A stretch of 64,000 nucleotides of DNA from an uncultured bacterium (GTDB taxonomy: Bacteria > Babelota > Babeliae > Babelales > Babelaceae), in assembly GCA_963722385.1 (NCBI GenBank), contig CAVRKK010000002.1, forward strand, positions 32,001 through 96,000. The letters run 5' to 3'. The position numbers were made by a program, and so were the translations under genes. Shown here one piece after another: positions 5,203 through 5,660 of this stretch. Positions within the stretch are counted from its first letter, which is position 1. The number at the start of each line of letters is the position of its first letter. The notes under the pieces were generated by a model. The model was given only the letters and a program-made list of their open reading frames with translations, made no database searches and was not told where the DNA came from.

Positions 5203-5660
5203 CGACTACACGGCTGACGGCGCCAAGGCTACGGATGAGAATGCTTACGCAGCGGACGCGCCTATGCGGCGAGCACACCTACGCGGTGGGCGGCATGGCG
5301 GCGGCCCTGCACCCACACCAATATGCGTAGTAGCGCATATTGTGTCCGTAGCAGCCTTTGGTAACAAAGGCGCAAAGCGAAGGGATTTTATTTCTTGCTG
5401 TATATGCTCATTTTTTGTAACTCGTGTGAATGCTCTAAGCATGCGATGCGCATGCTTAGAGCTACCGCAATCTTCCTGACGGAAGATAGAAAGCGATATT
5501 ATTTTTTTATCATGAAGCGTAGCGACATGATAATGGCGTAAGTTATCGTACGCTTTGGCGTACGATAACTACCAAACCTAACATATGCGTTATATTGCGC
5601 ATCGGGATAGCTAAGGGACGATGTCCCTTAGCCGCCAGCCGCGCAGGCGATTAGATTCAA
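5203..5660 (+). repeat. dispersed multi-hairpin non-coding element, copy A (candidate structured RNA / composite REP-MITE)
   Basis: Collinear homology to the reverse complement of 54435-54815; hairpins at 5319-5342, 5354-5371, 5432-5462, 5470-5487, 5508-5532, 5541-5570, 5610-5632. Confidence 0.9.

Follow-up and report, generated by a model that had tools for sequence, protein, structure and literature searches.

The closest described systems in the literature that we compared (PMC3733652, PMC6006769, PMC3184786, PMC3116915, PMC8794818, PMC4743918, PMC3557383), include several types of dispersed bacterial repeats and the transfer origins of plasmids. REPINs are extragenic, dispersed inverted doublets of a short palindromic REP unit that form hairpins and are mobilised by RAYTs, with singlet remnants and, in some genomes, tandem arrays (PMC3116915). 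BIMEs, REP dimers whose spacers are structured and the TIR repeats of TIRYTs are palindromic mosaics with hybrid dimers, a nested second palindrome and a bias towards convergent genes (PMC3733652, PMC3184786). MITEs and the Correia, ERIC and BOX repeats are non-coding, with terminal inverted repeats, a stable fold and lineage-specific expansion, the interior of BOX being modular (PMC3184786). The oriT of IncI1, ColE1-type and MOB-Q plasmids has a GC-rich hairpin followed by a second inverted repeat (PMC4743918, which describes the R64-type oriT). Among the further papers retrieved by literature searches, no title or abstract opening describes the family or the end module reported below, and motif strings retrieved unrelated papers; the repeat lists in the supplements and figures of PMC3733652 and PMC6006769 could hold the module.

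We analyzed a dispersed element in a stretch of 64,000 nucleotides (the window) and in the genome to which it belongs (the source genome, G000; 1.60 Mb in two contigs, with many ankyrin and beta-propeller genes). The element shares the doublet architecture, extragenic dispersal, singlets and arrays of REPINs, the mosaic structure, hybrid dimers, nested palindrome and convergent bias of BIMEs, REP dimers and TIRYT repeats, and the non-coding character, terminal inverted repeats, stable fold and expansion of MITE-like repeats, together with the modular interior of BOX. Unlike REPINs, it is 300-510 nt long with 5-8 internal hairpins, has neither a RAYT beside the module nor a GT[AG]G foot, and its end unit consists of two hairpins and is common to several phyla. 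Unlike BIMEs and TIRYT repeats, its end unit is neither GTAG- nor CGTC-tagged, and no tyrosine transposase gene was found bracketed by it. Unlike MITE-like repeats, it has ragged ends, no target-site duplication and no IS with matching ends. Thus, lacking the foot and a cognate RAYT, it is not a member of the REP-RAYT system, and, lacking the duplication and a matching IS, it is not a classical MITE.

The element is probably a non-autonomous, non-coding, dispersed mosaic hairpin repeat that works like a REPIN or BIME. The evidence in hand is its presence at about 50 intergenic loci, the inverted module doublets, the swapping of modules and the rewriting of hairpins in place. Sites and interiors are species-specific, and the ends are common to the species and to repeats in other phyla. 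One of the two readings offered in the earlier note, a composite non-autonomous element, fits the intergenic dispersal, mosaic modules and lineage-specific sites. We describe a new family of a familiar sort of bacterial repeat; what is new is the cross-phylum end module, the template-switch account of its covariation and the likeness of its ends to oriT.

Copies A and B and the repeat family of the source genome

Copy A, which belongs to class I, occupies positions 5203..5660 (plus strand) of the window between deaD (3507-5192) and trkA (5751-6404). As the earlier note had reported, it is collinear with the reverse complement of 54435-54815, and the alignment also bears out the identical 59-nt block (5257-5315), the five hairpins kept in the same order (their inverted arms were recovered as well) and the compensatory C:G / A:T stem change. 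The similarity between copies A and B is far above chance (BLAST E-values of 6e-64 and 3e-38), and both copies fold strongly (z-scores of -7.3 and -4.6, respectively; 0/100 shuffles were equally stable for each).

Copy A begins with a left terminal array (5203..5288, minus strand) of small hairpins with GCRNA loops on the minus strand, the units being located at 5242-5254, 5259-5271 and 5276-5288, with a decayed unit at 5203-5216. Embedded in the array is a second palindrome of the CGCCAAGGCTACG type (5213..5235, no strand assigned); this family is nested within many copies of the element and is dispersed alone in other genomes of the order, with matches standing on their own in 9 of 40 relatives. 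The left head hairpin of the terminal module (5293..5314, minus strand) is followed by an optional inserted sub-module (5316..5385) with two hairpins (5319-5342 and 5354-5371). These had been described as extra hairpins of copy A; they are present in the alignment but are not specific to A, since they form a movable sub-module whose relatives occupy different positions in other copies and also occur alone. The interior continues with a pyrimidine-rich variable linker (5386..5430, plus strand) and the hairpins H3 (5432..5462; 14 bp, represented by 33 variants, the loop being inverted in some other copies), H4 (5471..5486), H5 (5508..5532) and H6 (5541..5570; 13 bp), for which, as for the sub-module, no strand is assigned. 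The right end, read on the plus strand, consists of the head hairpin H7 (5605..5632), the counterpart of the left head, a terminal GCRNA-loop hairpin (5633..5649), which is an inverted copy of the left units, and a variable tail of ATTCA-like pentamers (5650..5660; about 1-5 units across copies).

Copy B (class I; 54419..54832, minus strand) is flanked on one side by an alpha/beta hydrolase gene and on the other by a 178-aa ORF adjoining tnpB, and has a longer tail and, on its left side, one more terminal hairpin, extending to 54832. Homology between A and B indeed ends at GATTCAA, but the right end varies in its number of ATTCA-like pentamers, and other copies continue to match B for ~28 nt beyond this point. 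Because the ends are ragged (unit arrays, a variable pentamer run and nested ends), GATTCAA is merely where copy A stops. The TnpB gene near copy B (PF07282; 55434-56417, minus strand) belongs to an element that recurs in near-identical form at about 1260200-1261400 of contig C2, and its right-end hairpin resembles that of two IS200-type TnpA copies. Copy B was considered as a TnpB guide RNA and rejected in this role: the tnpB element ends ~500 nt away with a hairpin of its own, and the second tnpB copy has no repeat.

The two copies, regarded in the earlier note as an inverted pair 49 kb apart, are real, but they are merely two of about 50 loci. BLAST searches with A and B found 52 clusters in the source genome, two of them weak, and self-comparison of the genome yielded 51 loci; the clusters make up about 0.9% of the genome. 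By reading the copies we assigned ~25 to class I (A/B type) and 10 to class II, in which the left half is as in class I and the right half is different, the rest being halves, fragments and rearranged copies. Copy A is closest to B (similarity 0.90), and B is closest to another copy. In agreement with the absence of a conserved ORF claimed previously, no ORF of at least 30 aa recurs at one place across 21 copies. In sequencing run X1, which may be the source sample, depth is 47-71 over the element versus 0-7 on its flanks.

The gene context was scored for 45 loci longer than 120 nt, using our own crude ORF calls: 18 are convergent, 8 divergent and 19 co-oriented. Convergent sites are enriched relative to the background of 64/347 gaps (p=3e-4), and copies less than 10 kb apart are more alike than others (0.87 in 5 pairs versus 0.79 in 205 pairs, p=0.02), these p-values being overstated because the copies are not independent. 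At co-oriented sites the direction of the element shows no strand preference (8 versus 11). An apparent replichore bias (32 versus 14 on a rough skew-based split) was dropped: gene orientation is near-unbiased under the same split (709 versus 646), and therefore origin and terminus are uncertain and the replichore count was not used. No base-precise empty site or excision product was seen. In the mechanism that we propose, copies would very probably persist only where they are tolerated, best between convergent genes, and recombination among them, together with template switching by the polymerase on hairpin arms, would keep them alike.

Terminal module, rewriting of hairpins and the structured RNA reading

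Both ends of the element are formed by one terminal module, placed in inverted orientation around a row of independent hairpins. Reading outward, the module comprises a GC-rich head hairpin of the form GGGTGCAGGG-loop-stem (at the left end of copy A read on the minus strand), a short spacer, a GCRNA-loop hairpin and an AT-rich tail. Across 21 class I copies, the loops of the 48 left units lie without exception on the minus strand, and those of the 19 right units on the plus strand; GCRNA accounts for 76 of the 83 five-base loops tallied. A terminal motif is confined almost entirely to the element, 36 of its 37 matches in the source genome lying inside element clusters. Both ends were located in 33 copies, with lengths of 306-510 nt. 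None of these 33 copies has a target-site duplication, the longest shared flank word being 4-8 nt and never at both junctions; the ragged ends, with left units in arrays of one to four and a further nested end in some copies, could hide an old duplication. The GT[AG]G foot 5' of the hairpin is absent from the module sequences, GTAG occurring only across the loop and 3' arm of one variant.

Assortment of the modules is close to independent, with correlation in 2 of 10 pairs, and 1759 of 2628 site pairs are incompatible in the four-gamete test. Covariation was counted in an alignment of 21 paralogues with strict pairing, a count distinct from R-scape and with the outermost left units outside the alignment; it gave 26 covarying column pairs in which Watson-Crick pairing reaches 90% or more. 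None of the 12 stacked pairs has a span above 28 nt, the two pairs with a longer span lack stacked neighbours, and no stacked long-range multibranch covariation was found among these paralogues.

A central mismatch is the normal state of H3. Among 37 scored copies (7 loci were omitted for indels or another subtype, and there was one tie), the mismatch is repaired in 7, by three different types of repair, and the H3 loop is inverted in 5/7 repaired versus 1/29 unrepaired copies (p=3e-4, likewise overstated by the non-independence of the copies). One copy carries H6 in reversed orientation at its usual place, and loop flips also occur in hairpins of the same-genus genome G001. According to PMC8794818, a compensatory change combined with a loop inversion is the strongest sign of template switching and is very rare in rRNA. 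A large share of the compensatory change in this family is attributable to template switching, and since repaired stems often carry inverted loops, covariation here is no proof of an RNA. The earlier statement that selection acts on structure holds in part: it is weakened by the share of compensatory change due to template switching, and the persistence of the layout in G001 around a different interior speaks for it. The family offers a clean natural case in which textbook-like covariation among paralogues can arise by DNA template switching, and calls for caution in the discovery of ncRNAs from multi-copy elements.

The other reading in the earlier note, an undescribed structured RNA gene of 400-460 nt, does not agree with ~50 intergenic copies in four gene contexts, the absence of strand preference, lineage-specific sites, independent module assortment and GCRNA loops on opposite strands at the two ends. 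The element is unlikely to be an RNA gene and has more the look of selfish repeat DNA. The more specific proposal of a large structured RNA transcribed from the minus strand of copy A, as a multi-copy ncRNA or an RNA-mobilised element, is likewise improbable, although several observations favour it. Besides the strong folding of A and B, RNA folding favours the minus strand in 18 of 21 copies (by a mean of 7.5 kcal/mol), and DNA folding does so in 17 of 21. The H3 mismatches on the plus strand are 26 A.C versus 6 G.T, favouring wobble pairs on the minus strand, with 16 of them from one inherited column. The GCRNA loops resemble the GNRNA pentaloop, an RNA loop motif; the layout is retained in G001; and the source genome contains one broken reverse-transcriptase fragment. 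Against it stand the opposite strands of the terminal loops, the inversions tolerated by internal loops and the lack of stacked long-range covariation in the 21 paralogues. Moreover, no fixed promoter or terminator was found around copy A, and the reverse transcriptase lies near no module and has no match in G001, G052 and G040.

The scan with Rfam 15 agrees with the earlier note, which had matched the element to no RNA family: it gave nothing credible, with 3 tRNAs only at the gathering threshold over the 64-kb window and, at relaxed thresholds, best E-values of 0.42 for copy A and 0.13 for 20 other loci. A hammerhead was considered for class II and rejected. In the hammerhead core, CUGAUGA and stem II are followed by GAAA; all 10 class II copies (L048-L057) carry CTGATGAG and a stem, but GAAA does not follow, and these copies have no Rfam hammerhead match. 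Any effect of the element on read-through mRNA, such as pausing or 3' protection, would be secondary.

Distribution in relatives and other phyla and likeness to transfer origins

The interior of the element was not found outside the source genome in the collections searched. Among 260 other genomes of the phylum, with 2 candidates scored per genome, it gave only 26-41-nt matches to AT-rich linkers, in 5 genomes; in plasmids and phages the only matches were short and attributable to chance, and the exact interior pattern has 0 matches in genome, viral and metagenome collections, which may lack the source genome and very near genomes. The ends are distributed differently. A terminal 17-mer occurs 63 times in the source genome, 16 times in G001, 18 times in G052 and 4 times in G040 (0 in controls), once each in two further genomes and in 0/255 others. 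The elements of G001, of ~235 nt, have the ends and layout of those in the source genome and different hairpins. None of 11 loci examined in G001 maps to the junction of a source-genome copy, 8 of them having short flanks only. The trkH and trkA genes are directly adjacent in G001 (25 nt apart) and G052 (14 nt); the pair is split by deaD and copy A (3507-5660) in the source genome, and in G040 another gene lies between them.

Searches with the terminal pattern found at least 130 stretches in species genomes and at least 120 in metagenomes, and 0 in viral contigs. About ten of the 130 listed species-genome matches resemble chance matches in coding sequence; the remaining listed matches represent the module in Binatia, Clostridia, Planctomycetota, Chloroflexota, Desulfovibrio and Acidobacteriota. 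Copies of a terminal 16-mer number 55, 379, 16, 65 and 15 in five genomes, the first four of which are from the cross-phylum module set, versus 0-1 in controls. In other phyla the module stands singly, in tandem arrays or in doublets of 94-435 nt arranged head-to-head, and its tails differ between phyla. The spread is patchy: in the phylum of G262, only G262 itself carries the module among 151 sampled genomes. In Binatia the module adjoins the same genes in several genomes (L073, L084, L085, L123, L129), which suggests that some sites there are old or retained. Five or more phyla have repeats with this end module, and no known transposase lies beside it.

Doublets in Planctomycetota combine a head of the source-genome type with a variant head at the opposite end. 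The variant head matches 302 plasmid records, of which 277 are typed as mobilisable, with a best E-value of 2e-3 and mostly near-identical E. coli plasmids among the records. All four matches that were opened lie at the transfer-origin position of IncI1, ColE1-type or MOB-Q plasmids, either 4-28 nt upstream of a MOB-P mobA or a MOB-Q relaxase gene or adjoining ColE1-type mobC/rop, and in these plasmids, just as in the module, a second inverted repeat comes after the variant head. The upstream hairpin of oriT has a role in ending transfer.

These matches raise the proposal that the ends mimic plasmid oriT and that visiting conjugative relaxases, which are HUH enzymes, cut and re-join them, seeding many phyla. 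It would be a specific form of the REPIN/BIME-like explanation, and we give it a low probability. The doublets that join a source-type head to a plasmid-matching head, the predominance of mobilisable plasmids and the position and second inverted repeat of the opened matches speak for it. Yet the E-values are weak, most records are redundant E. coli plasmids, the heads of the source genome and of Binatia have no oriT match, and the resemblance may have arisen by convergence towards a stable GC hairpin. In addition, module tails contain no nick-site consensus, and relaxases of the two families covered, MOB-P and MOB-Q (PF03432, PF03389), were found in none of five genomes. In a Phycisphaera plasmid with a match, no relaxase lies beside it in the parts viewed. 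Unlike a plasmid oriT, the module is chromosomal, stands at both ends of the element, has no relaxase gene of these two families and is linked to oriT through the Planctomycetota variant only. Also unlikely, at about the same level, is the broader picture of a cross-phylum repeat class whose end module imitates the end signal of oriT and which passing relaxases or an undescribed HUH enzyme copy in place of a resident RAYT, while each lineage builds its own interior by recombination and template switching. If relaxases were the true agents, plasmid conjugation would be linked to the origin of chromosomal repeats.

Candidate mobilising enzymes and neighboring mobile elements

HUH enzymes cut single-stranded DNA 3' of a hairpin without target duplication (PMC6006769). 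Under the preferred REPIN/BIME-like explanation, chances are about even that new copies would be made by a trans-acting nick-and-join enzyme of this type, which would take as its target the double hairpin closing either single strand at its 3' end, with cleavage in the AT-rich tail. The cut of HUH enzymes falls a few bases 3' of the hairpin, and a cut within the tail would leave ragged ends and no target duplication. The mobiliser may come with visiting mobile elements or may have been lost; an HUH-type enzyme other than RAYT/TnpA is a plausible candidate. With its 35-40 nt, the module offers a defined substrate with which to seek the agent that spreads REP-like repeats in the absence of RAYTs.

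The earlier note had proposed a RAYT/TnpA-like transposase as the mobiliser, and the searches do not support it. It is very unlikely that the copies are true REPINs belonging to a RAYT or to the IS200/IS605 TnpA of this genome, with the TTCAA tail as cleavage site. The right-end site of IS200/605 is TCAA, which the tail recalls, and the source genome contains two near-identical IS200-type TnpA copies, TnpB elements and several multi-copy IS families. The doublet architecture is that of REPINs (PMC3116915), and REP families without their RAYT exist (PMC6006769). However, the head hairpin is present at 0/27 Y1-transposase loci, the GT[AG]G foot is missing, and the tail is not TCAA outside the source phylum. 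No Y1 match was found in the module-rich genomes G001 (91% complete) and G261, nor in 8 of 21 further module-bearing genomes; gene loss is possible.

A classical MITE moved by the DDE transposase of a resident IS is most unlikely: the terminal inverted repeats, non-coding sequence of 300-500 nt and several multi-copy IS families recall such an element, but the 33 copies have no target-site duplication, the ends are ragged and nested, no listed repeat family ends in the module and the terminal motif is nearly restricted to element clusters.

The module was absent from the ends of the TnpA, TnpB, IS and other listed repeat families of the source genome, and no recurring mobile-element gene was found near the 250 listed module loci (clusters inspected by eye, the best 30 and 22). 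GIY-YIG proteins were rejected as mobilisers, the small GIY-YIG genes being preceded by other palindromes without the terminal module. At L017 (G000:C1 296557-297040), L003 and L331, small or broken GIY-YIG genes have palindromes upstream, some of them related to the nested sub-module.

Several other features were recorded. In the module-rich genome G261, five loci (L342-L346) combine a small ORF, a reverse transcriptase of 370-424 aa and a related downstream gene, an arrangement presumably like that of diversity-generating retroelements. Positions 28477-28819 and 59074-59415 of the window are two inverted remnants (98% alike) of an IS of 1.25 kb that occurs at 12 genome loci and whose transposase we take to be ISAs1-like. 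An 89-nt direct repeat with a terminal hairpin occupies 23901-23989 and 26227-26315, with a third copy elsewhere in the genome. The window also encodes two large beta-propeller repeat proteins from a very large paralogous family (29056-34627, minus strand) and a MazF/PemK-like toxin (56685-57276, minus strand), for which the upstream 82-aa ORF may be the antitoxin. Finally, the last 822 nt of contig C1 match the first 819 nt of C2, and the two contigs of the source genome therefore probably join.
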